This document shows positions 7,680 to 36,769 of a stretch of 64,000 bases of DNA, one piece after another (position 1 is the first letter of the stretch; the number at the start of each line of letters is the position of its first letter). Source of the stretch: a virus (lineage: Duplodnaviria > Caudoviricetes); the IMG/VR virus record IMGVR_UViG_3300038345_000087, positions 32,001 to 96,000 of that record; one strand, given 5' to 3'. The position numbers and the translations under genes were made by a program. Below the pieces are notes generated by a model. It had not been told where the DNA came from, searched no databases, and saw only the letters and a program-made list of their open reading frames with translations.

Positions 7680-7775
7680 ATGCCTGATAGTGCGCCCGCT
7701 GGTTCATCTGGCGGGTGCCTTTCAGTCTCATTGGATTCTTCACCACCATTAGTGCTGATTGAATATGAATTGTAA
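7680..7775 (+). CDS. 31-aa remnant TRD-type mini-ORF (ends PPLVLIEYEL)
   Basis: Translated manually. Shares the C-terminal tail of the downstream cassettes; the body is mostly a hairpin repeat. Confidence 0.3.
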   Translation: MPDSAPAGSSGGCLSVSLDSSPPLVLIEYEL

Positions 7776-8076
7776 ACTGGCAAAATTCTATGAATACGGC
7801 TCTACCTCATATTATGTGACAGGTGATGGTAGGGTGTTGAGTACACGGAATCCTGACCTCCCAATGGATTCTTGGCACGAGATAGCATCTTTCAACGGTA
7901 AGGGCTATCGTCGTGTGCGCATCCAGCGAAAGAACTTCAAGGTGCATCGTTTGGTGGCTGAAGCCTTTGTGCCAAACCCCGACAATCTCCCTCATGTTCT
8001 TCATATAGATGGCGACCGCTGTAATAATCATTATACAAATCTCGAATGGTCCGCGTCCCAATCCAATCACCAATAA
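7765..8076 (+). CDS. HNH endonuclease (NUMOD4/HNH_3-like)
   Basis: VHRLVAEAFVPNPDNLPHVLHIDGDRCNNHYTNLEW. Confidence 0.85.
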   Translation: MNCKLAKFYEYGSTSYYVTGDGRVLSTRNPDLPMDSWHEIASFNGKGYRRVRIQRKNFKVHRLVAEAFVPNPDNLPHVLHIDGDRCNNHYTNLEWSASQSNHQ

Positions 8077-8207
8077 TCCTTGGCTACTATTCTCCTTCGC
8101 AGAATGGTGTTGTGGTCTCTCCATACGGTATCGCGTTATGCCTTGCAGGGGGGGGTAAAGGACATGATACGGACAAACCTAAAATTCTCATAGAGTATGA
8201 TGTGTAA
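8046..8207 (+). CDS. Stand-alone MTase TRD-like cassette 1 (53 aa; G8 in frame)
   Basis: MVRVPIQSPIILGYYSPSQNGVVVSPYGIALCLAGGGKGHDTDKPKILIEYDV; G8 at 8148-8155. Confidence 0.65.
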   Translation: MVRVPIQSPIILGYYSPSQNGVVVSPYGIALCLAGGGKGHDTDKPKILIEYDV

Positions 8208-8346
8208 TGGTGTGGTCATTCTGGTGCTCGGTTCACTCCAGCCGCACGCAGCTGTGGTCAACGTAGTAGGGGGGGGTAATTTCATCCCTTGCTTAGGAAC
8301 AACAGATTTCGGACTTCCAAAATTGGTGATAGAATATGATGTTTAG
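8197..8346 (+). CDS. TRD-like cassette 2 (49 aa; G8 in frame)
   Basis: MMCNGVVILVLGSLQPHAAVVNVVGGGNFIPCLGTTDFGLPKLVIEYDV; G8 at 8269-8276. Confidence 0.55.
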   Translation: MMCNGVVILVLGSLQPHAAVVNVVGGGNFIPCLGTTDFGLPKLVIEYDV

Positions 8347-8526
8347 TATAACGAATATAGGCGCATTCCGCGTAACGAGGGGGGGGGGCAAATCTGTCCT
8401 ATCAATGTCACGCTTGATGGCTGTGCTGCTACCATCACTACACGTTATGGCGCAATGGACTATTCCAACATCATCAGTTTCGGCCATTTTCCTATGACGG
8501 CTTGTTTATTGGAGTATGATTTATAA
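8336..8526 (+). pseudogene. TRD-like cassette 3, frameshifted at G10 (putative phase-OFF)
   Basis: ATG at 8336. After G10 (8379-8388) the frame QICPINVTLDGCAATITTRYGAMDYSNIISFGHFPMTACLLEYDL is out of frame with the ATG; G8 or G11 would restore it. Paralogous to cassette 7. Confidence 0.6.
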
Positions 8527-8687
8527 GATAATAGGTTGGTCCCGCGATGCAGTAGGCAGGGTGGTATGTTATCACTTAAAGGACATCTGCAACACACTTA
8601 CCACCTTTGTAGGGGGGTAAATTTAAGGACTCAAAAACAGACCTCGGCAATACTACGCCTTATGTCTTTATAGAATATGAATTGTAA
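8516..8687 (+). pseudogene. TRD-like cassette 4, truncated at G6 (putative phase-OFF)
   Basis: MIYKIIGWSRDAVGRVVCYHLKDICNTLTTFVGG* stops right after G6 (8612-8617). G5 or G8 would continue into GKFKDSKTDLGNTTPYVFIEYEL. Confidence 0.65.
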
Positions 8688-8940
8688 AAAAAGTATGTTG
8701 ATAAAATCTATTAGATATATAGGATTCCTGAGACCTGACGTGAGTTGTGGCACTGGTTATTCAGAACCCGATAAGTTCCATGTGGTTTATGATACAGGGT
8801 TGGAAACTGATGTGTGGGTTGATATTTGGAATCTTCCAGAGGAATGTGTACGTAGTGCTTTTTTAGAGGATTGTATGATGCTTTTCATTCGCTACCCAAT
8901 AATCTTGATGAAGCATTTGAAATGTATAAGCAAGCAATAA
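8677..8940 (+). CDS. hypothetical protein
   Basis: 87-aa ORF coupled to cassette 4 through the same GAATATGA junction; no TRD-like tail. Confidence 0.5.
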   Translation: MNCKKSMLIKSIRYIGFLRPDVSCGTGYSEPDKFHVVYDTGLETDVWVDIWNLPEECVRSAFLEDCMMLFIRYPIILMKHLKCISKQ

Positions 8941-9001
8941 TTCCAACAGGACGTTGCCCACATTTTTGGCTTAATGAACGTAAAAAACAATAATATATAA
9001 T

Positions 9002-10252
9002 ATGATAGCTAAAATTTATCCAGACAATCATCCAGATTTGGCGGGCAAGCGTGACCCGTCACATCCAGTCCGTTACTTCGATATCCGTAAACTGACAGAA
9101 GGTGAATGCCTCCGTTTGATGGATGTTCCTGAACCTGACATCATCAAACTTTGTAATGCAACAAAGGGCAAGGCGGGGCGCATCAAAGAAAACGAACCCG
9201 CTTATGGTGAAGCAGGACATGGGAAAGGCTCTCCTGTGCTTTCTCGTTCTGCTATCTATAAACTTGCAGGAAACAGTATTGTTGTTTCATGCTTACGTCA
9301 TATCTTCAAGAATATCTATTTGACAGAGGATGATCCTAATGACGCTTTTGAATTGTTCCCTGAACCGACATTCCGTGCCCCTATTCCTTCTACCATTCGT
9401 CTTGTTACACTTTGCTCAGGTTATGACTCACAAGCCATCGCCCTTCAGCAAGTGGTAGATGAGATAAACCAGGGGGGGCAAATCAACGGTTCCGTATGTT
9501 GCGATGGTATCGCAACCCAATTAGATTTGCTTGCTTGGGCTGAATACGACCCAGATCGTCCGAAAATACCACTTGAAAGACAACCCGCCGTAGTTGCACA
9601 TAATATCCTTTTTCCCCAATATGCGGATCGTAACCTCGGCGATATGACAAAGATTGATTGGCCTTCCGTCTATGAGGAGTGGAAGGCGAAAGGAATCTCC
9701 GAAATCGATATTCTTACTTATTCTACGCCATGCCAAAGTATTTCTCAGGCTAGTAAAAGAGCCGGCATAAAGAAAGGTTCTGGCACCCGATCTTCTATAC
9801 TATGGTACACAGAGAATGCCATCCGTACACTCCGACCTAAATTTCTTCTTCAAGAAAATGTCCGCGCTCTGGTGAATGAGGTGAACATTGATGATTTCCG
9901 TGAGTGGCAACAAGTCTGTACTGATTGTGGATATGACAACTATTGGGCCATACTGAATGCAAAGGATTTTGGCGTACCGCAAAACCGTGAGCGTGTGTTC
10001 ATGCTTTCCGTCAGAAAGGATTTGAACCTACCCATATATCGTTTTCCTAAACCTTTCCGCCTCTTGAAGTGTATTGCAGACATCCTTGATGAGGATGTAC
10101 CAGAGAGTTATTTCTTGAAGCCGGATAGTGTTATCAAGTTCTTTCAGACCAATGAAGCAGATAAGAATGCGGCCATCTGTTATGCTTATACAGACCACAA
10201 ACTTTCTAATGAGGAAATCGCACGCATTCGTAAAGAGAATGGGGTGGGGTAA
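9002..10252 (+). CDS. Circularly permuted DNA (cytosine-5) methyltransferase lacking a TRD
   Basis: Motif order is IX (IRKLTEGECLRLM), X (YKLAGNSIVV), I (LVTLCSGYDSQ), IV (STPCQSIS), VI (QENV), VIII (PQNRERVF); the protein ends soon after. Internal in-frame G7 at 9472-9478. Confidence 0.85.
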   Translation: MIAKIYPDNHPDLAGKRDPSHPVRYFDIRKLTEGECLRLMDVPEPDIIKLCNATKGKAGRIKENEPAYGEAGHGKGSPVLSRSAIYKLAGNSIVVSCLRHIFKNIYLTEDDPNDAFELFPEPTFRAPIPSTIRLVTLCSGYDSQAIALQQVVDEINQGGQINGSVCCDGIATQLDLLAWAEYDPDRPKIPLERQPAVVAHNILFPQYADRNLGDMTKIDWPSVYEEWKAKGISEIDILTYSTPCQSISQASKRAGIKKGSGTRSSILWYTENAIRTLRPKFLLQENVRALVNEVNIDDFREWQQVCTDCGYDNYWAILNAKDFGVPQNRERVFMLSVRKDLNLPIYRFPKPFRLLKCIADILDEDVPESYFLKPDSVIKFFQTNEADKNAAICYAYTDHKLSNEEIARIRKENGVG

Positions 10253-10553
10253 TGAAAAAGATGCTGATAAAAGATACCGAACCGTCCGAAGATATGGCTC
10301 GCATCCGTATTTCGGCAAGCCGTGGCAGGGGGGGCAATCTATGACTTACCTCTATGACCGTTCGCCAAAAGATGATACTGCACCTGTTCGTGTGGCTTCA
10401 TCTGTTAATCGTGACCTTGATGACCTTTCTTTTCGTGGTGCTCATGCGACAAGGAACTTCCATCAAGTCATAGAACTTGGCTCTTCTCGGTTCACCAACA
10501 CTATCACTTCTGTTCTAAAAGACAATCTCGTATGGATAGAGTGTTTTCCGTAA
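10252..10553 (+). pseudogene. TRD-like cassette 5, frameshifted at G7 from the coupled ATG (putative phase-OFF)
   Basis: The ATG overlaps the MTase stop (TAATG): MKKMLIKDTEPSEDMARIRISASRGRGGNL*. G8 instead of G7 (10328-10334) would join it to ...FHQVIELGSSRFTNTITSVLKDNLVWIECFP. An alternative ATG at 10239 is already in the downstream frame. Confidence 0.55.
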
Positions 10554-10675
10554 GTTTGATTCGTTATCCACATGGTAAGTTTCGTGGTGGTCATTATCAT
10601 GTTCATGCTTTTCCTCCATTAACGACCTCTTGCTTCCAAAACAATAACTTTCTACTTATTGAATATGATTCCTAA
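10532..10675 (+). CDS. TRD-like cassette 6 (47 aa; no G tract)
   Basis: MDRVFSVSLIRYPHGKFRGGHYHVHAFPPLTTSCFQNNNFLLIEYDS. Confidence 0.6.
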   Translation: MDRVFSVSLIRYPHGKFRGGHYHVHAFPPLTTSCFQNNNFLLIEYDS

Positions 10676-10901
10676 TAGCCGCCCTGCATGTTGCGATTCT
10701 ATCGAAACTCTCTCATTGACCATTACTACCTCCGCACCTCCTAAACGTATTCCAGGGGGGGCACTTCTTCCTGTAAATACAACAGCCGACGGGCTGGCTT
10801 GCACTCTCAACACTCGTTACGAGGCTATGGCTCTTCCGCTCGACATCCTTTCCCTGGCTCATTACCCCAAGACAGTTATTTTGATAGAGTGGTTCCTATA
10901 A
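10665..10901 (+). CDS. TRD-like cassette 7 (G7 in frame)
   Basis: ...RIPGGALLPVNTTADGLACTLNTRYEAMALPLDILSLAHYPKTVILIEWFL; G7 at 10755-10761. Confidence 0.6.
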   Translation: MIPNSRPACCDSIETLSLTITTSAPPKRIPGGALLPVNTTADGLACTLNTRYEAMALPLDILSLAHYPKTVILIEWFL

Positions 10902-11014
10902 TGACCATCAACTCTTCACAAGATGGCATCGTGGTTTCTCCTTGGGGCATTTCTCCTACACACACAGCCGGTCATGGTAATATGCCCAAGGTAATAGTAG
11001 AATACGACTTGTAA
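10901..11014 (+). CDS. TRD-like cassette 8 (37 aa; no G tract)
   Basis: MTINSSQDGIVVSPWGISPTHTAGHGNMPKVIVEYDL; paralogous to cassette 1. Confidence 0.65.
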   Translation: MTINSSQDGIVVSPWGISPTHTAGHGNMPKVIVEYDL

Positions 11015-17800: not shown

Positions 17801-20602
17801 GGAGCCACGCGGAAACTTTTAGAAGAACATGCTGGCGCAAAGTTCGTTGGTAGGTATAGTAATGGTACGGGTTATAAAGATAATGTTATCTATAGAAATG
17901 GCAATTATGCTCAGATAGCTAAAAGTTCGCCTTGGGTGGTTAATACTCCGTGGATGGATGAGGTGGAAGAGATTTCAACAGCAGTTAATAATATAATAGC
18001 TGCTTATCGCGATGTTCGCAGTAAAGAAAAAGAGGTACATGACGCATTTGATGGTTTGGTGGGTGATTGGGATGCAGATTTCAGATCTTTAACTGGTGAT
18101 GAACCGCCTGGATCACTTGATAACAACGCCCCTGACAAAGACGCTCTTCGTCGTGCCAAAGAAGAAGCTGCTCGCCAGAAGAAACAATGGCGTGATGATC
18201 TCAAAGAGGCTCAGGACCGCGCACGCGCCATCATTGATAACATCAAGAATTTCTACCAGCGTCAGATTAACGAGGTACTTCGTACTGCCAACGAACAGAA
18301 TTGGGACACCTCACTCACGGATGCTGCCGTCCGTGCCGTGGAAGGTCGCATGAACCTCGCCCTCTCCAATGCTCGCAAGGCGATTGCCGGTGTGCAAAAC
18401 GATTGGGGCACATTCAAGACGGAAATGGCCGCTGATATGCGGGAAATGGCGGATGAAACGGGTTATAATGAGTCTCAGCTGTTGTTGAACAGCATTCAAG
18501 AGGCTGATCCAGATGCCATCCGTAACCTGATTATGCAACTGTCCTCTAACCTCGAATTGCCTCAGAATGCAGCCATCGATGCCATCTGGAAGAATGCTTC
18601 GCACAATGAGACGAACATCGAGACAGCTGAACAGAAACGACGCAGGGAGGTACAGAAGCGACTCCTGGATGACAACTTCACTGGTAAGGTGGATAACGAA
18701 TACACTAATTCGATGGAAACTCTCGGTTTCTTCGACCTCTCTTCCGAACAGGCTAACACGTTGCTTGCGGGAGGGGAGGATGCTGAAGCCTTGCTCCAAC
18801 GTCGTGCTCAGGAAATAGGACAAGTGTTGCAACGTGCCCGTGAGACGAACTTGTTTGCAATCCAAGATAAATACGGATTGATGGAGGCTTTGTTTGGTAA
18901 GGATTGGCAGTCACAACCGACCGAATTGGCACATGTGCTTGAACTGACTGGCGATGACCTTCAAGTGTTCTATCGCGAACTGATTAAATACTCTGACTCT
19001 TATACTGAAGCCCTCAAACGCTCCCGTGAACGCCAGAAGAAAATCCTTGATGAGCAATGGATGAAAACTACCACATTCCATGCTAATGAGGATGCTCAGA
19101 AACAGACACAAATGCTTGCTTCTGGTGTGGGACAGTTTTCGGCGAATGTGCAACAGCAACAGGAGGCGGGCGAAAGCGTACCGCGTAAGGACACCTATGG
19201 CACGGCATCGTTTATCTCTTCGATGGGACATGACCCAGAGATAGATTCTTACCGTTTGAAGATGGAGGCTGCTGCTGCTTATTATGACTTCCTCAAAGCG
19301 CATCAAGCGGATGCTGAAACACTCCGTGACGCAGAACAGGCAATCCTTCAGTCAGAAATGGAGTATGCTAAATCGGTGGCAGAACAGATGAAGCAGCGCA
19401 TCAATGACATCTACGAACTTGCTGCTCCTATCGAGGACTTTGGTACAGAGGTGGGCGAAGCGTTCGCTACGATGACCGAGGATGCAGAAGAGGGACGTAA
19501 GGCCATGAAGAAGGCCATCGGCTCCATGATTAAAGCCTTTATGAAGCAGACCGTGGAAATGTCAAAGGAGTACATCAAGCGTCGCATGATGCAGAAGATG
19601 AACGACAAACTGACATCCAAGGCCATGAAGAAGTCTATCAAACTGGAGACTGGACTCGAACAGGATAAGCAAGATGCCGTTCTGGATGTGGCAAAGCAAG
19701 GCGGACAAGCTCGTACCTTCCTGAATGAAGAGGTGGAGGGCGATGTACTTCAGGCAAAGAAGGAAATCGGCAACGAGACTTTGATCACGCAACAGACACA
19801 GACGCAACAGGAGGTGCAGACCGAATCATCCAAGACTCAGGCGAACACCACAATGGGTATTGCCAGTGGTGCGTCTAAGATCATCGGCTCGCTTGGTTGG
19901 TGGGGCATTCCGCTTATCGCCGTTATCACTGCCTTGCTGAATGGCCTCCTGTCTTTTGCCATGAGCAAGGTGTCCTCGCTTTTTGGTGGAGGCAAGGAGG
20001 CTGGTGGCGATGAAGGTCCTAACGTCAAACTGGCTTCTGGTATGTTGACATACGACTCTGGTAACGTCCAAGCCTACGCGGGTGTTATCGATGGCAAGAC
20101 TTACCCCGTTGTGGGTTCCGACGGCAAGGTGTATGCAGCAAAGGATGGCGGCGAACTTTCTACGGGCCTTGTGAAAGACCCCATCACAACGCTCATCAAT
20201 GGTCAACCGGCTCTCGTAGCAGAAAAAGGCCCTGAAATGGTGATCGGTAGAGAAACAACAGCCGCAATGATGATGGCTCGGCCTGATATTATCGCTGAGA
20301 TAGTGAAGTTCGATAAGAACCGCTCTGGCCAAACGTACCGTGCTTACGATGCTGGTAATATCGCGGAACTGATAGCCAATGGTACTGTGCCAAACGGTTT
20401 ACCCGTTGGGGAAAATGGCCTCACTCCCGAAGATATTGCCTCTCTCCGTTCTTCTCTGGATGGCTTTGCCGCTGTCATGGCTCTTATACAGAAGAATGGC
20501 TTGCACGTCAACAAGTTTGGTCGCGGGTCTGTCACAGAGGCTTCCGCATCCGGCGCAAAATTCATGCGTCAGAACTCCGGCGATCGTCTTTGGCGTGGGT
20601 AA
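14876..20602 (+). CDS. Tail tape measure protein
   Basis: 1908 aa, helical and Ala/Gln-rich; TP901-type core (FSDQLADIRKVSGL...) and hydrophobic segments. Confidence 0.85.
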   Translation: MDKKTEVVITCNSKQPVAAVRAMETELKKLQGTYQQLVQAGKAGTERAKTMAHEIKELSIAIKEGKANMDKIVSVTNNLSQSSLSQLQRALRQVKKEMSRVSTDSPKLDDLRMKYKAITDQIKILSGEMLNIKKHIGNLSGVTDSWLQKAVQQQKALVQQTRQGTSEYNKQMSVLSQLSTEQARRAVSTISSGTASAEQLRSARAALVSHRDMIGSGGIQVQGNQATEIAKINEELKKADAQLDTIAGKEQKLVYSTQEIADKANQIIMDPKKFTPKEIETALTNVNNKLKEIPLNDPFRKQLKQSATQLKAILDGVDKELIDIKNLLQPQNLKKASLEQLKNAATQLEKEMAKLNRDTQEYINKKSQLATIRGEIDKATGSVHKQSSAWQTTLRNMSAYFGAFQLFSMAIQKVQAFFRLNLKFSDQLADIRKVSGLAMQDINNLANSLAKLDTRTTIQELNEIAYAGAKLGMGKYGTAGLEQFVRAANQVNVALKEDLGQDALTALSKITEVMGLIPKMGVEKSMLAVGSAMFQLSATSTATSNNIVEFSKRLTGMARTAGITTDQLLALGSASDAMYLMPEVASTAFNKLITSLQTKHNLIEQELQIEPGTINNLYSAGKTMDAIVLILEKMKAKGNMNALQGVFKDLGSEGARLVNVMVTMSKNVDMLKDHLATSEEAFSEATAVTQEYAIQQETANALMERASNIWEKSFINPKGVDNVKELAQQWYNLTRTLTESTFFMAQAKAAIWLLISSIKILIALLPVLIEFFLFRGAYAAIMAVVRGFVALRTAIQAATVAQHGLNAAQKANLFGLIATLIAAAVSWFITYREKAEDAAEAQQTVNHALADAQAEYMKTKKKLDDYVKALDDANISEDTRQRLLRSFNKDYRIYLDKLGIEVNSVNDLKTAYAKLNDEIKKKAYYELRERTLQSYVGDAQTEQANAMIEFQKVMKKYGLDVNADYVVNNQHLGMVGATRKLLEEHAGAKFVGRYSNGTGYKDNVIYRNGNYAQIAKSSPWVVNTPWMDEVEEISTAVNNIIAAYRDVRSKEKEVHDAFDGLVGDWDADFRSLTGDEPPGSLDNNAPDKDALRRAKEEAARQKKQWRDDLKEAQDRARAIIDNIKNFYQRQINEVLRTANEQNWDTSLTDAAVRAVEGRMNLALSNARKAIAGVQNDWGTFKTEMAADMREMADETGYNESQLLLNSIQEADPDAIRNLIMQLSSNLELPQNAAIDAIWKNASHNETNIETAEQKRRREVQKRLLDDNFTGKVDNEYTNSMETLGFFDLSSEQANTLLAGGEDAEALLQRRAQEIGQVLQRARETNLFAIQDKYGLMEALFGKDWQSQPTELAHVLELTGDDLQVFYRELIKYSDSYTEALKRSRERQKKILDEQWMKTTTFHANEDAQKQTQMLASGVGQFSANVQQQQEAGESVPRKDTYGTASFISSMGHDPEIDSYRLKMEAAAAYYDFLKAHQADAETLRDAEQAILQSEMEYAKSVAEQMKQRINDIYELAAPIEDFGTEVGEAFATMTEDAEEGRKAMKKAIGSMIKAFMKQTVEMSKEYIKRRMMQKMNDKLTSKAMKKSIKLETGLEQDKQDAVLDVAKQGGQARTFLNEEVEGDVLQAKKEIGNETLITQQTQTQQEVQTESSKTQANTTMGIASGASKIIGSLGWWGIPLIAVITALLNGLLSFAMSKVSSLFGGGKEAGGDEGPNVKLASGMLTYDSGNVQAYAGVIDGKTYPVVGSDGKVYAAKDGGELSTGLVKDPITTLINGQPALVAEKGPEMVIGRETTAAMMMARPDIIAEIVKFDKNRSGQTYRAYDAGNIAELIANGTVPNGLPVGENGLTPEDIASLRSSLDGFAAVMALIQKNGLHVNKFGRGSVTEASASGAKFMRQNSGDRLWRG

Positions 20603-20684
20603 TTCGCAAGGAGTCGCCAAAGGCTCCCACATTGGGTTCTTTTCAATAAAAGTTCGGTATGGTTTTCCCATACCGTTCTTTTTT

Positions 20685-20720
20685 TTGTTCCGTTTACTTC
20701 CCCTGTTTCCCCTATCTTTG
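20685..20720 (+). promoter_or_regulatory. Putative late promoter TTGTTCCG-N20-TATCTTTG
   Basis: Exact motif and spacing; preceded by the terminator-like hairpin CGGTATGG/CCATACCG plus a T run. Confidence 0.7.
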
Positions 20721-20742
20721 CTTTTGAAATTTGAAATCTATT

Positions 20743-21870
20743 ATGGCCGTACATATCAATCTTCACCTTCCGACTTCCTATAACCGCTGTTCTCTACCAG
20801 AACTGCGTGCTATCGCTGCTGTTATGAGTGACTGTGCCCTTCGTGCTTCCCGTTTCCATCCGTTTGACATGATGGAAGTGAAGGTGGCCGTGTTTCTCAG
20901 ACTGACAAACCTCGAAATAGTAGAACCGCTTAATCCACGTGTTCCTGTTGAGGAACAGTACTACGTTGTGCGCACGCTTCCCTATACTGTCAATGATGAA
21001 GAAAGAAGGTGGTTCCGTGTGTTTCGATGGCATCGCAACTTAAAAGCGTGGTGCCGTCGCCATATCCTCGGACATGATGATTCCTTTTCGCTGTATCTCT
21101 GGCAAATACACTCCTGGTTATCTTCATCTAAGAGTCGTGTGACGGGAAAGGTTACGCCTGGCCTTTTGGACTGGCTGGATGCCGACAACCCAGATTCGTT
21201 ACTTATATTCCCGTTATCTTCCATTCGTCGAAGTCACCGTGCCAGATGGTTTCCCTTCGGGTCTAAAGTTACTTTCGCTGGCCCCGCACCCCTGATGGAT
21301 GGATTTAGTTGGCAACGCTATCGCTTTGCTCAGGACTATATGCAGAATTATATCAACGCATCCAATCGCCTTCTCCAGTTGCAAAAGATGGGTAATCGCG
21401 CTTCTGCTGCCGACATCCTCCGCGCCTCCAAGAATCTTGACCTCGCAAAGGCTTTGTTCCTGGCTACCATTTTTTGTCGTCGCATCACTTATGTGGATGA
21501 AGAAACGGGGCGTACTAAGACGGATTATCGCTACCAATCTAACCAACATATAGACAATGCGCCATATTTCCGAAACTTCCCTGATACGGACTGGCAACTG
21601 GTCTTGTTGTGGTGGCAGGGTATGATGCACTACTTACAAAAGACGTACCCTAAAGTTTTTAAGAAACAAAAGGTATCGAAGGATCAGAAGGCGGCTAATC
21701 CGCTTGAACTCTATACTCGCACAACGGCCACAATGGAGAAATACATATCTGCCACGGCTTCTGAGGTGGATCACGAACCTTATACGACAATTCTTCAACA
21801 TATCGAAGATATCATCAAGAATAACGAGGAAATGGAACGCATCAATGCTTCCATGAAACGTAAATCATAA
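20743..21870 (+). CDS. hypothetical protein
   Basis: About 375-aa ORF after the late-type promoter. Confidence 0.6.
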   Translation: MAVHINLHLPTSYNRCSLPELRAIAAVMSDCALRASRFHPFDMMEVKVAVFLRLTNLEIVEPLNPRVPVEEQYYVVRTLPYTVNDEERRWFRVFRWHRNLKAWCRRHILGHDDSFSLYLWQIHSWLSSSKSRVTGKVTPGLLDWLDADNPDSLLIFPLSSIRRSHRARWFPFGSKVTFAGPAPLMDGFSWQRYRFAQDYMQNYINASNRLLQLQKMGNRASAADILRASKNLDLAKALFLATIFCRRITYVDEETGRTKTDYRYQSNQHIDNAPYFRNFPDTDWQLVLLWWQGMMHYLQKTYPKVFKKQKVSKDQKAANPLELYTRTTATMEKYISATASEVDHEPYTTILQHIEDIIKNNEEMERINASMKRKS

Positions 21871-21898
21871 ATTCATCAAATCATCAATTCATTAAATT

Positions 21899-22171
21899 AT
21901 GAATACAGAAAAACTTTATTCTCGCGTCCTCGAAATTCTTATGGCGCGTTATGACTCTCCATCCATGCCTCCGGCTTCGGAGATAACGATTGACAGTTCT
22001 CTTTCTGAGGATTTGGGTATGGAATCGCTCGACATCGTAGATTTCATCATCGGCTGTGAGACGGCTTTCGACATCAAATTGGATATGGCCGACGCGAAGA
22101 ATGTTCATACCATTCGTGATCTTATTGACTTTATTCTGGAAGTGAAGCCTTCGTTATGCAACCAACTTTAA
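21899..22171 (+). CDS. Acyl carrier protein
   Basis: 90 aa, acidic; EDLGMESLDIVDF contains the phosphopantetheine Ser; FDIKL..., TIRDLIDFI. Confidence 0.85.
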   Translation: MNTEKLYSRVLEILMARYDSPSMPPASEITIDSSLSEDLGMESLDIVDFIIGCETAFDIKLDMADAKNVHTIRDLIDFILEVKPSLCNQL

Positions 22172-23526
22172 TCACAGGCATTGGCATCTGGTCCTGCATA
22201 GGGGAGAATCGTCAGATTGTGGAGCAATCATTACGTGCCGGACGTTCTGGCATTGGTACGGATTATCGGCGCACGGAATATGGCTATCAGTCGCCGCTCA
22301 CGGGGGTTGTCCCAGAACCAGACCTGTCACATGAACCACTGCGTAATAGCCAACGCCGTTGCTTGGCTGAACAATCAGCTTATGCTTACTTTGCTGTGAA
22401 GGAGGCTATTGCTCAAGCGGGTCTCACACCTGAACAACTACGCCATGCCGCGCTTATCGTGAGTAATGACAGTTGTGCCGCTGCTGCCTCCGAAACGGAG
22501 GAGGTAATGGCCTTGCACCATGATAGCCGACGTTTGGGTGGTTTCCATGTGTTCAAGTCACTCAATAGTACAACGTCGATGTCATTGGCTTCGATCTTCG
22601 GAATTGGCGGATTGTCCCTCTCCCTCTCTGCCGCTTGTGCTGGTGGTGGCCATGCTATTGGTCTTGCACACTCTCTTATCAATGCCGGCGTGATAGATAC
22701 GGCTATTGTTGTGGGTGCTCAGGAGGTGGGGCTTCATTCCTACACCGCCTTTGATGCACTTGGCGTATTCAGTAAAAACGTGGAAAATCCGTCGGGGGCT
22801 TCACGCCCATTTGATGTGCATCGTGACGGTCTTGTGCCTTCTGGTGGTGCTGCGTGTATCATATTGGAGTCCCGTGCGTCTTTCTCGTTTCGCCTTCCCC
22901 AAGTGGATTCTCCCTGTGCGCTCGCTGCTGTTGTTGGCTATGGTTTCTCGACATCGCCCAATGTGGTATCTCCATCTTCAGAAAGCATCCTCGCGGCTAT
23001 GAAGATGGCTATGGGATGTCACCACTTATCTGTCGCGGCTCACCTCTCTACAATCTTTCCGCACGCAACATCTACACGCGATGGGGACCGTGCCGAAGCA
23101 GAAGCCATCACATCACTTCTTCAGTCCGTTCCAGATAATCCTCTCAGCATCTATGCTTGTCTTGGAAATCAGCTTGTAGATCCTCATGCCTCATATAGCA
23201 TGAATCCGTCAGAGATAGATGGTGTTTCTTCGTGTGGTGGTTTCATAAAAAAACCGTTAGTGATTCCAACTAAGGCTCTAACAGGCCATGAATGTTGGAT
23301 GGCTGGTGTATCTCAGATAGTGTATGCTATAATCCAGTCGCAAGGCGGCTTCGCTACCCCGCACCCCAATTTATCAGAGAAAGACTTGGCAGCATCATCC
23401 TTGCACATTCCTACGGATTTGCAACAGTATGACCATACGCTCTTCCTTTGTAACGCATTTGGATTCGGAGGCACGAACTCTTCCCTCTTGCTTGCTGCAC
23501 CATCCATGATACCATCTTTGGAATAG
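22156..23526 (+). CDS. Beta-ketoacyl-ACP synthase (FabB/FabF family)
   Basis: ITGIGIWS, catalytic SAACAGG, SRPFDVHRDGLV, HATST, KALTGH, NAFGFGGTN. Confidence 0.9.
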   Translation: MQPTLITGIGIWSCIGENRQIVEQSLRAGRSGIGTDYRRTEYGYQSPLTGVVPEPDLSHEPLRNSQRRCLAEQSAYAYFAVKEAIAQAGLTPEQLRHAALIVSNDSCAAAASETEEVMALHHDSRRLGGFHVFKSLNSTTSMSLASIFGIGGLSLSLSAACAGGGHAIGLAHSLINAGVIDTAIVVGAQEVGLHSYTAFDALGVFSKNVENPSGASRPFDVHRDGLVPSGGAACIILESRASFSFRLPQVDSPCALAAVVGYGFSTSPNVVSPSSESILAAMKMAMGCHHLSVAAHLSTIFPHATSTRDGDRAEAEAITSLLQSVPDNPLSIYACLGNQLVDPHASYSMNPSEIDGVSSCGGFIKKPLVIPTKALTGHECWMAGVSQIVYAIIQSQGGFATPHPNLSEKDLAASSLHIPTDLQQYDHTLFLCNAFGFGGTNSSLLLAAPSMIPSLE

Positions 23527-23562
23527 GGTAGTGCGCATATATGGTGTTTCTCTGTCTTGTAT

Positions 23563-23594
23563 GCCGCCGTAACGCGGCGGCTGGTATCTTTTTT
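23563..23594 (+). terminator. Terminator-like hairpin
   Basis: GCCGCCG-TAACG-CGGCGGC followed by a T-rich tract. Confidence 0.5.
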
Positions 23595-24440
23595 CAATCT
23601 TCTTATTCGTCGGATTTCATTCGGAGGCTGCCGTCAGGCACGCCTCCGCCAAAGGTATCTAAACCCACATCGCGCCAGCCTAAACATAAGAGACGCGCTT
23701 TTCTTTCTCTTGTATAGAGAAAGGCGCATAATACCCCAATTTAATTCGGGTACAAAATTACAATTATTTTTTCGCCCCGCCAAACATTTCTGGAGAAATC
23801 TTCTGTTTGGACTTCATTTTGTGTTCTTTTTCCCCGAAAAGACGCTAAAAGTCCCCAAAAGGATGGTATCATTGTCGCTGAAAATCCCTCAGATAACGCT
23901 TTTTCCGCATGATTTCGCCCGTCAAAAGGAGAAAATGATGGATTTTTCCATACCTCCCAAATTATTTTGCGTCAGAATCTTCTTAGGGGAACGGGGAAAC
24001 CCCGTACCTCAAAAGTAATTGAGCAATAATGCGAAAGCTCTGCTTTCTTCTTTGTTGTTCAGTAAGTTATGTGGAGGAAATATGAAAGCAACAATGTGGG
24101 CGAATTTGGTTTTTTGTGCCTTTTTCCTCTAATTCATTTTTTCTCATGTATGCGTAATGTTATTGAAAAAGAGGGTAAAATAACTTTTTACCTATAAATA
24201 TAGTTGTATTCCAGATAGTTTCCATAATTTAATTTTCTCTTTTCTCCGACTTTTCCCATCTTTTTACAACTTTACACTTGGTAAAAATCATCACCGAAAT
24301 CGGTTGTAGTCATAGTTGCAAGGAAAAAAGAAGAGTCAAGGGATAAATCTGTTTCTGATGAATGGTGAAATAACTTTCTTTCCCCGAAAATGGATGCCAA
24401 AACCCGAAAATAAAGCTCTGAAGTGTTAAAAATTAGCCAT

Positions 24441-24497
24441 AAATCAGAATAAAACCGCGAAATTGTTTTGTAAATCCAAATAAAACCTTTATTTTTG
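24441..24497 (+). promoter_or_regulatory. Early-type promoter with putative operator
   Basis: TATTTTTG -7 element at 24490-24497; AAATCAGAATAAAACC (24441-24456) is identical to 594-609. Confidence 0.55.
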
Positions 24498-24531
24498 CAC
24501 TTGAAATCAGTAATTCAAACAGATTAAAACA

Positions 24532-24921
24532 ATGTATAAGTATTTTTTCGTCCTAAATTGGCTAATACTTGGAATGGTCGTGCTTATCTATAATCAGATC
24601 GTTCCCTTGTTGCATGGGTATAGTGTACTCGCAGGATCCATATTCGCGGCGATGCTTTCTGGTGGATTGGTGTCGTGGCAGTTCTTCCGTGACAGTGATT
24701 CCGAAAAGGAGTGGAAATGGCGTAAACGCTATTTCCAAAAGGACTACGGAATCGAAGTGTCCGTTCAGGCGATTATAGCTGTTATCGGACTTGGGCTTTG
24801 TTGCTTGATATGGTCGAAGCTGCATGTCATTACTGGATTTGCCGTCACCTATTGTTTTAATGTCCTTATAGAATGGGGTTGGGCTAAGGCTCATCATTGG
24901 GGTAAATACGCCCGTCACTGA
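24532..24921 (+). CDS. Membrane protein
   Basis: About four hydrophobic segments. Confidence 0.6.
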   Translation: MYKYFFVLNWLILGMVVLIYNQIVPLLHGYSVLAGSIFAAMLSGGLVSWQFFRDSDSEKEWKWRKRYFQKDYGIEVSVQAIIAVIGLGLCCLIWSKLHVITGFAVTYCFNVLIEWGWAKAHHWGKYARH

Positions 24922-24942
24922 TATACATATATATAATAAGGT

Positions 24943-25953
24943 ATGTTCAACGTCCTTTGTTCCATATATACAGATGCCCATGACAACAGTGGTCGCTTTG
25001 TTGACCGCGAGACGGGCGAGGTCATTCAGCAGATGACCATACACGACTTCTGCCTCACAGACAGATGGAAGCCGGTGGTGGACCAGCTGCGTGGGATGGT
25101 GGCGCAATATGGGGCAAAGGCAGCGAAGGCCCGTGATGAATACAAACAGACTAAAACGCTACTCCCTGGGGCTACGTTATCTGGTCTCTTTGAACTGCGT
25201 GAGGTGGAAACGGAGAAGGTGAATAAGCGTACAGGGGAGGTATTCATGGCGAAGGAATGGGTGTCACGTCGCACGGCACATCTACTCCAGCATACAGGCT
25301 TCCTTTGTATAGACATTGACCTTCAGGACAATCAGAGTCTTGCGGATATGAAGATTATCCTACGTACACTTCGACATCGGCCAGAAGTGGCTCTTTTGAT
25401 GCAGTCGTGCTCTGGTACAGGTTATTTCGCTCTTATTCCATTGGCTTATCCGCAATATCATAAAGAACATTTCCGTGCTCTCCTTCGTGATTATGCCGCT
25501 CTTGGCATCAAAATAGACAAACAATGTGGTGATGTTACCCGCATTCGATTTGCCTCTTATGATGCAGATCCTTATATAAACAGCAATGCGATTCCATACT
25601 CAGGTATAGACCTCGGACAACAGATGTTGGCACCAAAGGCAGCGGTCTATTCGCCTCGTTCTGAAAGTACGGATGACCTGGTGAATAAGGTGGGTATTCT
25701 TGTGGAGAAACTGGAACGGCATCATGTAGATATCACTAACGATTACGGCGACTGGTTTCGGGTAGGTTTCTCGCTGGCGAACCTTCCAGAACCTTGGGGC
25801 CGTCAATTCTTTCATCGGGTTTCGGCCATCTGTGAGAAATACAATCCATCCATTTGTGATCAGAAGTTTAATACGCTTCAGCAACCAGATCGTATAGGCA
25901 TTGGTACGTTTTTCTCCATCTGCGCTGACTATGGCATAACACTTAAAAGTTAA
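24943..25953 (+). CDS. VirE N-terminal (BT4734-like) + PriCT-2 domain protein
   Basis: KTLLPGATLSG, HTGFLCIDID, SCSGTG, DVTRIRFASYD; C-terminal DITNDYGDWFRVGFSLA. Confidence 0.75.
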   Translation: MFNVLCSIYTDAHDNSGRFVDRETGEVIQQMTIHDFCLTDRWKPVVDQLRGMVAQYGAKAAKARDEYKQTKTLLPGATLSGLFELREVETEKVNKRTGEVFMAKEWVSRRTAHLLQHTGFLCIDIDLQDNQSLADMKIILRTLRHRPEVALLMQSCSGTGYFALIPLAYPQYHKEHFRALLRDYAALGIKIDKQCGDVTRIRFASYDADPYINSNAIPYSGIDLGQQMLAPKAAVYSPRSESTDDLVNKVGILVEKLERHHVDITNDYGDWFRVGFSLANLPEPWGRQFFHRVSAICEKYNPSICDQKFNTLQQPDRIGIGTFFSICADYGITLKS

Positions 25954-28012: not shown

Positions 28013-28208
28013 ATGTAAATGCTGCATTTGTGGTAACGCGGCTGTGGCGTTTTGGCCGAATATCGACCCCGACATTCCATCACATCCGTATTGCCGCAAA
28101 TGCCTCGATGAGCAACAAATCCAGATGCTTACAGCTACATTTTGCGAAGGTGACGAAAAAGCAGCTCGCGCAATGCACAAAGCCTTACAAAAAGACAAAC
28201 AACGATAA
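27981..28208 (+). CDS. Small zinc-finger protein
   Basis: CCIC...CRKC. Confidence 0.5.
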   Translation: MSKRLILKASECKCCICGNAAVAFWPNIDPDIPSHPYCRKCLDEQQIQMLTATFCEGDEKAARAMHKALQKDKQR

Positions 28209-29071
28209 TGACTGTTATTAAGACTACAACACCCATCGCACGCAATGATTACACTTGTGATCTGTGCCATCAACAAATTCCGCATGGCACACGATATAAG
28301 TGTGTTATTCTGCGTGCAGATGGCCGTCTCGTAACTCAGCACGTTCATCAGACATGTCCTGCCACGGTGTCAGAAGCATCATCTTCTGGTGTCGTTTCTA
28401 ATAATCCGCGTCAAACAGCTCCTCTGTTTATCCAGGGGGGGCATACTCCAGAAGATATTTTTCGCCAACAAATACACGCAGACGTTCAGGCACGCCTCCA
28501 TAAGTTTACCCGTGAGGAGAACTTACTGATAGCGTATGCGCCACTGGTTATTACTGAACTCTCTTGGAGGTTCGCTTTTAAGACTGTTGAATTGGCAGCT
28601 CACTATCGTATCTCTGAATTGAAAAAACTGTCACGTACCGTCAAGATGATGTTCGAGAAACAGAGGGGGCAATATCTTAAAGACCTCAAACCGTCACATA
28701 TCAAGCAAATAGAGACACAGACGGACAGATTCATGCAACTGTCATCCTCAGATCTTACCATCCTATATTTCTCTATCAATAACGAACTTAAAAAGAAGTT
28801 TCCAGATCTCTCTTACCTCGATCTGAGAACGGAGGCATGTCGAGCGATGGTGATGCTGAAGTTTCATAAAGAACATCAGAGAAAAATGGATGCGCTCATT
28901 AAGGAGCGTATGGGATATGTCAATCACTATGCAACACCCATACATGATGCTCTTTATGATGCAATGGATGCCTACGCCGATCCTGCTACTGTTGATTTCT
29001 CTGGCCATGTGGCCACATCTATGAAAATCTTACAGAAAAATATAGGTCAAATGGACTTTAAGACGTTCTGA
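28208..29071 (+). CDS. hypothetical protein (N-terminal Zn-binding motif; internal G7)
   Basis: CDLC...HxxC; in-frame G7 at 28435-28441. Confidence 0.55.
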   Translation: MTVIKTTTPIARNDYTCDLCHQQIPHGTRYKCVILRADGRLVTQHVHQTCPATVSEASSSGVVSNNPRQTAPLFIQGGHTPEDIFRQQIHADVQARLHKFTREENLLIAYAPLVITELSWRFAFKTVELAAHYRISELKKLSRTVKMMFEKQRGQYLKDLKPSHIKQIETQTDRFMQLSSSDLTILYFSINNELKKKFPDLSYLDLRTEACRAMVMLKFHKEHQRKMDALIKERMGYVNHYATPIHDALYDAMDAYADPATVDFSGHVATSMKILQKNIGQMDFKTF

Positions 29072-31737: not shown

Positions 31738-32566
31738 AGAATATCAAGTAATGAATAGATATATTTGTCGTGCAAAGGCCGTTGAAGATGGCCGTTGGGT
31801 ACAGGGTGAGCCACATACTATGTCCTCACATCCGCACATACATATTTCTGCATTGGAATCTGTTAGAATCAATCCCAATACACTTGGAAGGTTTACGGGC
31901 TGGCGTGATAAGAACGGTAATCCCATTTTTGAGGATGATATTCTGGCATTGACTATTCCTGATGGTACTACTCGACTATTCATTGTAGAGTGGCAACGTC
32001 AGGTAAGACATTTGAAGTCTCTGAAAGATTTTGTTCCAGATGGCAATCCAGTAGAGGTTAGTGGATGGTGCTTTACTTGGGGGCAAAACTGTCTATTACC
32101 ATCGGTTATAGGACATGTGCCAGACTATTATCGTATGGAAATTGTCGGAAATGTATATGACAATATAGATCTGCTTGAACCTGGTGCTGAAGAACAGTTC
32201 AAAAGCCATCGTGAACTAATCGGTAATACTTGCTGTCTGTCAAACAAACCAGGTGTGCAAGTGTTTATGTATGATCTAAAGAATGATAATGGCAGTTGGT
32301 TGGCTCGCTGTTTCCTTACTTCTGATGGCGTTTATATGTCCTACTCTGAATGGGGAAATTTCTTCCATTACTTTAATGCACCTGGTAAGGATGGTATTCG
32401 TAAGTTTATGCTTGGTATTAGCGAAGGCTACTTTGCCAACAAACTCTGTGAGGTGGAATGGAATACAGCACCGACCAAAGTAGCCGCTGCTGCAAAACGT
32501 CATGCAAAGCATGTCTTGCCAGTACTTCAGCAGACTATTCGTGAACAGTTGGAAAAGGAGGGGTAG
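31727..32566 (+). CDS. YopX-domain protein with extra C-terminal domain
   Basis: GRFTGWRDKNGNPIFEDDI ... EIVGNVYDN. Confidence 0.7.
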   Translation: MIIKEYQVMNRYICRAKAVEDGRWVQGEPHTMSSHPHIHISALESVRINPNTLGRFTGWRDKNGNPIFEDDILALTIPDGTTRLFIVEWQRQVRHLKSLKDFVPDGNPVEVSGWCFTWGQNCLLPSVIGHVPDYYRMEIVGNVYDNIDLLEPGAEEQFKSHRELIGNTCCLSNKPGVQVFMYDLKNDNGSWLARCFLTSDGVYMSYSEWGNFFHYFNAPGKDGIRKFMLGISEGYFANKLCEVEWNTAPTKVAAAAKRHAKHVLPVLQQTIREQLEKEG

Positions 32567-36218: not shown

Positions 36219-36769
36219 ATGAATAAATCCCCAATGCCTTCCATCCTTGATGCCTGTTGTGGCGGTAAGATGTTCTGGTTTGATAAGAATGACCCTCGTG
36301 TTCTCTTTCAGGACATCCGTTGCATAGAAACGACTCTCAAAGATCGTGATAAGCTACGACATTTTTCGGTTAAGCCGGATGTGATGGCTGATTTCACCTC
36401 TATGCCTTACCCAGACAATAGTTTTCGCATGGTTGTATTTGACCCACCACATTTGAAATATACTGGATCCAAGAAAGAACCTCAGAACTGGCAGATGAAA
36501 AAGTATGGATGGCTGCCCGCTCATGGATGGCAGGACATCATTCGCAAGGGGTTCTCGGAGTGCTTTCGTGTTCTTATGCCTGGTGGGTTTCTTATCTTCA
36601 AATGGAACGAAACAGACATACGTGTATCGGAAATTCTGAAACTTACCCCCCCACTACTCCACCTCTTTTCGGGCATATCTCTGGCAAACGGGCTAATACC
36701 CATTGGATATGTTTTATGAAAGAGGATGACGAACCAATTAACGCTGTGTTTCCAGATATAAAGCAATAG
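36219..36769 (+). pseudogene. SAM-dependent (amino-type DNA) methyltransferase frameshifted at C7
   Basis: ILDACCGGKMFWFDK, VVFDPPH, LIFKWNE. The expected tail PLFGHISGKRANTHWICFMK is in another frame after C7 (36646-36652). Confidence 0.75.

Follow-up and report, generated by a model that had tools for sequence, protein, structure and literature searches.

Why would a phage surround a methyltransferase gene with a row of very short open reading frames (ORFs), several of which are broken by runs of guanine? This question is raised by a locus located within a DNA stretch of 64,000 nucleotides (the window), which covers positions 32,001 to 96,000 of the virus record IMGVR_UViG_3300038345_000087 (Caudoviricetes). 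A first-pass annotation of the window had proposed that poly-G tracts at positions 8148-10761 switch individual cassettes, regarded as target recognition domains (TRDs), ON and OFF. Based on the analyses described below, the locus is likely to represent a modular, phase-variable and multispecific C5 cytosine methyltransferase of a Prevotella-type phage.

Poly-G tracts and the cassette array

Seven G runs had been noted within 2.6 kb, and all of them were recovered with the expected lengths by a run count of the window, namely G8 at 8148, G8 at 8269, G10 at 8379, G6 at 8612, G7 at 9472, G7 at 10328 and G7 at 10755. They represent seven of the eight G runs of at least six nucleotides in the whole 64-kb window, which agrees with the earlier statement that such runs are scarce elsewhere. 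In 200 first-order Markov simulations, a 3.3-kb stretch contained on average 0.33 runs of this kind by chance (maximum three), as compared to the seven observed. Moreover, every tract of the locus spells Gly-Gly(-Gly) in GGG codons. Within the long ORFs outside the locus, GGG accounts for 7.4% of the Gly codons, and the spelling GGG-GGG was encountered in one of 79 Gly-Gly pairs. Tract clustering is genuine and no by-product of base composition; because of the excess of runs and the rarity of GGG-GGG outside the locus, the tracts can be regarded as selected and not as placed by chance. The only G run of this length outside the locus, G7 at 28435-28441, lies in frame (QGGH) in a 287-amino-acid ORF of unknown function (28208-29071), and the sole C run of at least six nucleotides in the window is C7 at 36646-36652.

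Three-frame translation of the region resolved an array of mini-ORFs on both sides of a methyltransferase gene, hereafter the core. A cassette is termed ON when its body is in frame with its ATG. The members of the array are as follows (aa, amino acids):

8046-8207, plus strand: c1, putative TRD mini-ORF of 53 aa, G8 at 8148-8155, ON
8197-8346, plus strand: c2, putative TRD mini-ORF of 49 aa, G8 at 8269-8276, ON
8336-8526, plus strand: c3, putative TRD mini-ORF broken by G10 at 8379-8388, OFF; a single ORF of 62 aa at G8
8516-8687, plus strand: c4, putative TRD mini-ORF broken by G6 at 8612-8617, OFF; a single ORF of 57 aa at G8
9002-10252, plus strand: core, C5 cytosine methyltransferase of 416 aa, motifs IX-X followed by a linker and I-VIII, G7 at 9472-9478 in frame, ON
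10252-10553, plus strand: c5, putative TRD mini-ORF broken by G7 at 10328-10334, OFF from the ATG at 10252; a single ORF of 100 aa at G8
10532-10675, plus strand: c6, putative TRD mini-ORF of 47 aa without tract, C-terminus LIEYDS
10665-10901, plus strand: c7, putative TRD mini-ORF of 78 aa, G7 at 10755-10761, in frame and thus ON at G7
10901-11014, plus strand: c8, terminal putative TRD mini-ORF of 37 aa without tract, C-terminus IVEYDL, Tyr codon TAC, without embedded ATG
7680-7775, plus strand: c0, mini-ORF of 31 aa without tract, C-terminus LIEYEL; its tail contains the ATG of the HNH gene
7765-8076, plus strand: HNH endonuclease gene within the array, starting at a junction-embedded ATG (Pfam HNH_3, E 4e-9; PHROG HNH endonuclease, E 2e-28)
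8677-8993, plus strand: uncharacterised cargo ORF separating c4 from the core, starting at a junction ATG; no Pfam or PHROG match

Translation bore out the earlier frame assignments: c1, c2, c7 and the methyltransferase are in frame, and c3 (G10), c4 (G6) and c5 (G7) are out of frame from their coupled ATG, each becoming one intact ORF at G8. The tract-less cassettes c0, c6 and c8 were missing from the earlier tally. For c0, at most a candidate TRD, no family match was obtained in Pfam and PHROG. It had also been cautioned that the frame of c3 is continuous with c2 across a TAG. Frame 1 is indeed open over this TAG (8344-8346); read-through is nevertheless unlikely. TAG terminates 13 of the 54 long ORFs of the window, so the genetic code is standard, and stop-codon recoding joining c2 to c3 was rejected, as TAA, TGA and TAG all terminate long ORFs.

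The cassettes usually end with a hydrophobic pair, E-Y-(D/E) and one or two further residues; variant tails are VWIECFP (c5) and LIEWFL (c7). In most cases, the ATG of the next ORF is formed by the TAT-GA of the E-Y-(D/E) codons of the preceding cassette, a junction that is shared by the HNH gene and the cargo ORF. The cassettes c6 and c8 start at other ATGs overlapping the preceding tail. Scanning of 18 loci, including relatives introduced below, yielded 65 E-Y-(D/E) tails in 14 of them. All 62 tails with another ORF after them carry TAT-G, and the three terminal tails (window c8, the last cassette of locus L007 and the last upstream cassette of L015) carry TAC and retain the amino acids EYD/E. 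Therefore, the embedded ATG is under selection as a start codon. The tail is under selection as protein, too.

Tract lengths in close and distant relatives

In order to follow tract lengths across genomes, 25 close relatives of the locus from independent metagenome samples were compiled via the protein cluster of the core; their identity to the window is 84-98.5%, reaching at least 95% in 18 of them, and their tract lengths were taken from consensus contigs only. A blastn search of the locus against a phage collection and an exact-pattern scan of IMG/VR around the c3 tract gave no match. The lengths observed in the relatives, with numbers of loci in parentheses, are:

c1 tract, G8 in the window; relatives 7 (5), 8 (13), 9 (3), 10 (1)
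c2 tract, G8 in the window; relatives 7 (12), 8 (3), 9 (3), 10 (1)
c3 tract, G10 in the window; relatives 6 (3), 7 (16), 8 (3), 9 (1)
c4 tract, G6 in the window; relatives 7 (6), 8 (8), 9 (1), 10 (2), 11 (1)
core tract, G7 in the window; relatives 7 (9), 8 (9), 9 (7), counts biased by locus retrieval
c5 tract, G7 in the window; relatives 6 (2), 7 (4), 8 (2)
c7 tract, G7 in the window; relatives 7 (6), 8 (2)

Invariance across relatives, which the first-pass annotation had named as evidence against switching, was not found: all seven tracts vary among these near-identical assemblies, with lengths from G6 to G11. Over 6.2 kb, the window and the genomes sharing its haplotype are separated by three to five tract indels and only two indels elsewhere. 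Forms of 416 aa (G7), 180 aa (G8, reading on in the +1 frame) and 174 aa (G9), deposited on dozens of contigs, make up the protein cluster to which the core belongs at 90% identity.

Homopolymers are error-prone on some sequencing platforms, and consensus contigs were the sole basis of the comparison, which raises the question of whether the differences are sequencing or assembly errors. This explanation is considered highly improbable. The same truncated core proteins occur on dozens of independent contigs from several sources, and the SRR253887xx loci share G9 in the core (a state fixed by locus retrieval) and agree at c2, c3 and c5 where scorable. Furthermore, lengths cluster near the ON value in unrelated assemblies, and the control run A6 at 8982 was found as A6 in 24 of the 25 relatives. 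The latter was the sole usable control, the flanks of A7 (8686) and T6 (8859) being unmatched in most relatives.

Setting the tract to the ON length rendered all 101 scored cassette copies intact (101/101), and their proteins are almost invariant. Of these copies, 39 are ON and 62 are OFF. The OFF alleles are intact genes and not pseudogenes. Tract variation together with intact OFF alleles argues against both sequencing error and pseudogene decay. The states are combined differently from genome to genome, as had been anticipated: 16 fully scorable genomes exhibited 11 ON/OFF patterns and 14 length patterns. The earlier figure of six switches giving up to 64 combinations holds as a nominal count only; a core switch, three unswitched cassettes and the alternative starts of c5 come in addition.

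Cassette order upstream of the core is identical in all 25 close relatives. Downstream of the core, ten of them (L082-L084, L086, L088, L097-L100 and L103) carry another array, designated haplotype B, and are 95-98% identical elsewhere. Within the region of haplotype B corresponding to window positions 10239-10760, an extra cassette starts at the 10239-equivalent ATG, the c5-type body lacks its leader, and two tracts are present in addition, one of G8/G9 and one of C7/C8. Two downstream arrays thus exist among close relatives, and cassette content has therefore been exchanged between them. In L099, a 16-bp indel was noticed in c0 (around window position 7716), and no HNH gene was called there. 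The cargo ORF comprises 87 aa in the window, broken at T6 (8859-8864), and a 99-aa gene with one additional base in the T run in nearly all close relatives; the window copy is therefore either frameshifted or mis-assembled at T6.

Haplotype B also bears on the start of c5. As had been pointed out before, the c5 body can also be read in frame from an ATG at 10239 when the tract is G7; another in-frame ATG, at 10341, directly follows the tract. In haplotype B, the c5-type body begins with MTYLYD at the 10341-equivalent ATG, and the 10239-equivalent ATG opens a different cassette. Given these alternative starts, the c5 tract may act as a modifier that alters the leader of the module instead of plainly silencing it.

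Beyond the close relatives, relatives of the core were found in 79 IMG/VR loci, and in about 20 of these (cores 39-77% identical), the core is likewise surrounded by mini-ORFs with clustered G7-G11 tracts. Leader peptides and cassette bodies are conserved across loci whose cores are only 45-77% identical, and cassettes of the same type are again ON at G8 there. In numbers, G8 was ON in 19 of 24 cases in the distant loci, and G7 was OFF in 25 of 26. For example, the c1 type is ON at G8 in L007, L009, L011 and L013, the c5 leader motif RISASRGRGG is conserved in L002, L009, L011, L012 and L013, and the c6 type, tract-less in the window, has a G8 in L015 and L020. The loci L013 and L014 are 96.8% identical over 7.6 kb and have the same cassette order; eight of their 15 indels are changes of one or two bases in homopolymer tracts of the locus, flipping five cassettes and the core between ON and OFF. 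In L007, L009, L011, L013 and L014, the core contains a poly-C tract in motif IX (RKLTPPEC), about 95 nucleotides into the gene, which is C8 and ON in L014, C9 in L013 and C10 in L009. In the cores of the same five loci, motifs IX and X are separated by an acidic insertion of about 100 aa.

Some distant loci join a cassette to the core: L002 and L018 have a c4-type cassette as an in-frame N-terminal extension of the core, and another type is joined to it via a G7 tract in L009, L011, L013 and L014. These fusions, together with the two downstream haplotypes among 95-98% identical genomes and the HNH gene in the array, would be expected if the mini-ORFs were silent donors that are moved into one expression site joined to the core, as known for pilin or Type I hsdS shufflons, with the HNH endonuclease or the junction promoting exchange. 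Silent donors, however, need neither start codons of their own nor frame switches, and the cassette order, which L013 shares with L014 and which does not change upstream of the core among the close relatives, speaks against such movement. Moreover, neither a recombinase nor inverted repeats were seen, and no window cassette is joined to the core. Silent-cassette recombination is therefore judged very unlikely.

Another question is whether DNA length acts as a switch at all. RNA polymerase or ribosomes could slip on the G runs, such that every cassette is made at a low level and DNA length sets the dose and not an ON/OFF state. Transcriptional slippage on long homopolymers is established. The commonest lengths of c2 and c3 (G7) are one base below ON, G7 is also the commonest OFF state in the distant loci, and an ON fraction near one third fits dose-setting at the RNA level. 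On the other hand, slippage on G runs of six to eight nucleotides is generally less efficient than on A/T runs of at least nine, and length variation at the DNA level was directly seen and is sufficient alone. RNA-level slippage is hence considered unlikely as the explanation, and it would be compatible with DNA switching. In summary of the length data, in-frame tracts that set the frame were found to be polymorphic in length among near-identical, otherwise intact alleles, as is typical of phase-variable genes, and a role of the poly-G tracts as frame-setting switches is thus supported at the DNA level.

A permuted core and candidate recognition peptides

The core matches Pfam family PF00145 (E 8.4e-41). 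Catalytic motifs are visible in its translation, namely TPCQS (IV), QENV (VI) and QNRER (VIII), and M.HhaI aligns over motifs IV-VIII. In a homologue, M.HhaI residues 271-319 (motifs IX-X) correspond to residues 80-133, and M.HhaI residues 52-204 (up to motif VIII) to residues 225-382. The same two-piece alignment was obtained for the window core, the second piece being weaker than in the homologue. Based on this motif order, the core is a circularly permuted C5 methyltransferase of the M.BssHII type with its break in the variable region. About 28 residues precede motif IX, about 85 follow motif VIII, and a T-[LI]-T TRD core is absent from the chain; with chain ends so close to motifs IX and VIII, the core lacks a TRD, and its ends flank the position where a TRD normally sits. 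With a threshold of E 1e-10, the homologues of the core number at least 7,940 proteins. Seven of them (P0025, P0029, P0032, P0035, P0040, P0048 and P0072; 717-743 aa) contain intein and LAGLIDADG domains (PF14890, PF14528, PF13403).

In order to identify the nature of the cassettes, a profile of the c3/c7 type was searched against 1.84 billion representative proteins and matched 110 cluster representatives, 97 of which are stand-alone proteins of 43-111 aa. Six of eight long matches tested were PF00145 proteins. In the three long matches that were read (P0197, P0223 and P0231), the matching segment is located upstream of motif IX inside tandem arrays of TRD-like segments: P0223 carries three TRD types in a row before motif IX, and P0197 and P0231 are chains of a TRD array followed by motifs IX-X. 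The c3/c7 type thus matches PF00145 chains upstream of motif IX, so at least this cassette family is a family of TRDs. A preceding word-index search had found no longer proteins containing c7; such proteins were recovered by the profile search over all representatives. The tandem one-chain form occurs among relatives, with the free mini-gene form predominating.

Further indications concern the other types, which are linked to TRDs by motif resemblance or by alignment to L031 or fused forms. In L031, a methyltransferase of conventional motif order (44% identity), the segment between motifs VIII and IX matches c5 from the IR.R..G element to the NTITS...LVV strand. The c4 loop TLTTFVGGGK resembles TLSAYGGGI, the recognition loop of M.HhaI. 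In enzymes made as one chain (L031 and the cis forms), the counterpart of the shared cassette tail is the strand immediately ahead of motif IX. An initial idea that the IEYD tail is a copy of core motif II (AWAEYD) was dropped given this placement. Free and in-chain TRDs were also compared for their tails, and the two groups could not be told apart cleanly: Glu is common to both, and an aromatic residue after it occurs mostly in free forms, which is confounded with the embedded ATG.

The existence of tandem chains suggests a further explanation, according to which a tandem multi-TRD enzyme has fallen apart into the mini-ORFs, only a fused or adjacent TRD or none is used, and tract variation is noise. 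The same TRD types in one chain in P0197, P0223 and P0231, the ON fraction of about one third and the absence of the cassettes from Pfam and PHROG would be in line with neutral debris. In contrast, tract length aside, none of the 101 copies is damaged and their proteins hardly vary, leaders and bodies are kept across cores 45-77% identical, and the rare GGG codon is retained at every tract. Debris is likewise difficult to reconcile with the TAT (62/62) and TAC (3/3) codons of the tails and with the 97 of 110 family representatives that stand alone, and it would leave the TRD-less window core without means of target recognition. Consequently, neutral decay is regarded as quite unlikely.

According to the proposed mechanism, about nine mini-genes (31-100 codons) on both sides of the core would each encode one TRD-like module. 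Each module starts in the tail codons of the preceding one, so the array would be translated by coupled termination and re-initiation at the ATGs inside the tails. In six modules and the core, a G run encodes a Gly-Gly(-Gly) loop, and slipped-strand mispairing in replication would shift this run by one or two bases. The shift would move the module body into or out of frame, the ON length being G8 for most modules and G7 for c7 and the core. With tract slippage setting the frame, each genome would carry its own subset of translatable modules. On balance, we favour the view that a free module docks on the core in trans, partly via its C-terminal beta-strand tail, thus giving one target sequence. 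Cassettes on both core sides, the predominance of stand-alone TRD forms and a further cassette (C-terminus of the CVFIEYD type) about 19 kb away on the other strand are consistent with action in trans. Each cassette would then confer its own methylation specificity, and mixed methylation could hedge between hosts with methylation-blocked restriction enzymes and hosts with Type IV enzymes attacking methylated DNA.

Several observations weigh against this interpretation. The ON fraction of 39% in the window lineage and 35% in the distant loci is near the one third expected if the frame were irrelevant, and the c5 body could be expressed at any tract length from its alternative starts at 10239 and 10341. 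Regarding the TRD assignment, only the c3/c7 family is tied to TRDs by the database-wide search, and no Pfam or PHROG family recognises the cassettes. Regarding docking, the in-frame fusions of cassette and core in some relatives allow a cis-only reading for that one position, and an AlphaFold model of c7 alone (13 sequences) reached a predicted local distance difference test (pLDDT) score of 50. The model of the natural TRD-core fusion of L002 reached a pLDDT of 82.8, and Foldseek assigned it a C5-methyltransferase fold; its TRD residues 1-39 have a pLDDT below 50, and the model is silent on docking. Moreover, we know of no precedent for a free TRD docking on a C5 core.

The individual ingredients of the locus are known from other systems, i.e., multispecific phage enzymes, permuted and split C5 enzymes, homopolymer-switched methyltransferases and phage poly-G tracts. 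Multispecific C5 methyltransferases of Bacillus phages (M.SPRI, M.Phi3TI, M.Rho11sI and M.H2I) are reportedly the subject of Trautner et al. 1996 (EMBO J 15:1434; cited in PMC12707154). Like the locus described here, they are phage enzymes combining one catalytic core with several short independent TRD modules; their TRDs, however, form a tandem row between motifs VIII and IX of a single polypeptide and are expressed at all times. Each of these modules presumably recognises one target, protecting the phage from several host restriction enzymes. The locus differs by its permuted, TRD-less core and by TRD mini-genes on either side (one of them 19 kb away), most of which have their own switch. 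Instead of forming one chain, each cassette stops and the next one starts in another frame. Homology of the modules to TRDs of C5 methyltransferases was found for the c3/c7 type and for c5 (L031).

Naturally permuted C5 methyltransferases comprise M.BssHII, M.Alw26I, M2.Eco31I, M.Esp3I and M2.BsaI, M.AquI is naturally split, and an active C5 enzyme can form from separate fragments when the cut lies in the variable region (PMC5944983). The permuted enzymes share with the window core the order of motifs IX-X before I-VIII and the break in the variable region. The known ones keep the TRD in the chain, whereas the TRD-like sequences of the window are found in separate ORFs. The break position of the window core in the variable region appears to match that of M.AquI; the latter consists of two fixed subunits. 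In Type I systems, HsdS is a separate, exchangeable and sometimes phase-variable specificity protein serving a catalytic subunit without sequence recognition. The principle is alike, but fold and class are unrelated (N6-adenine, multi-subunit M2S), and HsdS is a large two-TRD protein as opposed to a peptide of about 50 aa.

Phase variation by simple sequence repeats is known for bacterial methyltransferases (Type III mod, Type I hsdS/hsdM and Type IIG), for example by poly-G in Campylobacter jejuni (PMC4889913), and for phasevarions (PMC12707154). As in the locus, a coding homopolymer slips and shifts the frame, and lengths differ between near-identical genomes. The bacterial systems are cellular adenine methyltransferases with one or two switches each and mainly regulatory or defence roles, whereas the locus features a phage C5 enzyme and seven switches in 2.6 kb, with six more in other modification genes. 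In Campylobacter phages, hypermutable poly-G tracts in receptor-binding protein genes vary host adsorption (Sorensen et al. 2021 Cell Rep 35:109214, via PMC12823448). Poly-G tracts of a phage genome are reported to create phenotypic subpopulations there and would do so here as well; those of the locus reside in DNA-modification genes and not in receptor-binding genes. A literature search turned up no account of a TRD-less core surrounded by free TRD mini-genes with a switch each, nor of a TRD-only subunit, or a choice among many, for C5 methyltransferases.

Candidate switches in other modification genes, host and implications

The whole genome of 106,650 bp contains 17 G or C runs of at least six nucleotides, 13 of which are located in DNA-modification genes (seven in this locus and six in a second cluster). 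The second cluster consists of minus-strand genes at genome positions 20600-25300, with six poly-G tracts at 20.6-24.6 kb. On the plus strand, these tracts read as poly-C (genome positions):

20635: C8
21846: C9
22295: C8
23655: C8
24335: C9
24629: C8

A G8 marks the exact break point of an N6_N4 methyltransferase, whose two parts match profile positions 1-183 and 181-221. A PAPS-reductase-like gene carries two tracts, a G9 between leader and body and an in-frame G8. Furthermore, a PHROG-799 methyltransferase contains an in-frame G8, and a radical-SAM-like gene features a G8. The remote TRD-like cassette is composed of the leader MSKVRHF..RGG, a G9 and a body with the C-terminus CVFIEYDI. A Dam gene is present in the second cluster as well and has no tract. 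Hence, the phage seems to place homopolymer switches across its DNA-modification arsenal.

Taking both clusters together, we lean slightly towards a broader view in which C5 methyltransferases can operate in the manner of Type I systems: a permuted core without a TRD would be served by any one of numerous free specificity peptides of about 50 aa, each switched by poly-G and docking by beta-strand complementation via the IEY(D/E) tail. With the switched genes for the N6/N4 methyltransferase and for the PAPS-reductase-like and radical-SAM-like proteins added, a whole phase-variable DNA-modification repertoire would result. If true, this would represent a new route to sequence specificity in a cytosine methyltransferase, in which small free recognition peptides are plugged into one core, and a hypermutable switch per peptide would render phage populations epigenetically heterogeneous by design. 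It would also explain the dozens of unannotated mini-ORFs and truncated methyltransferases reported by gene callers, and a core accepting interchangeable TRDs of 50 aa could become a compact scaffold for programmable writing of 5-methylcytosine. For annotation practice, homopolymer frameshifts in such loci should not be 'corrected' as errors.

If the proposed mechanism holds, the findings bear on the way in which gut phages of Prevotella and other Bacteroidales cope with host restriction and methyl-dependent defence. A relative with a core 73% identical to that of the window and the same array, including the HNH gene, was identified on the 90,283-bp contig 204 of the isolate assembly of Prevotella sp. 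MGM1 (locus L010, identical to L107). This phage provides a clue to the host and represents a possible experimental system. Other relatives were mostly found in metagenome-assembled genomes of Prevotellaceae and other Bacteroidales.

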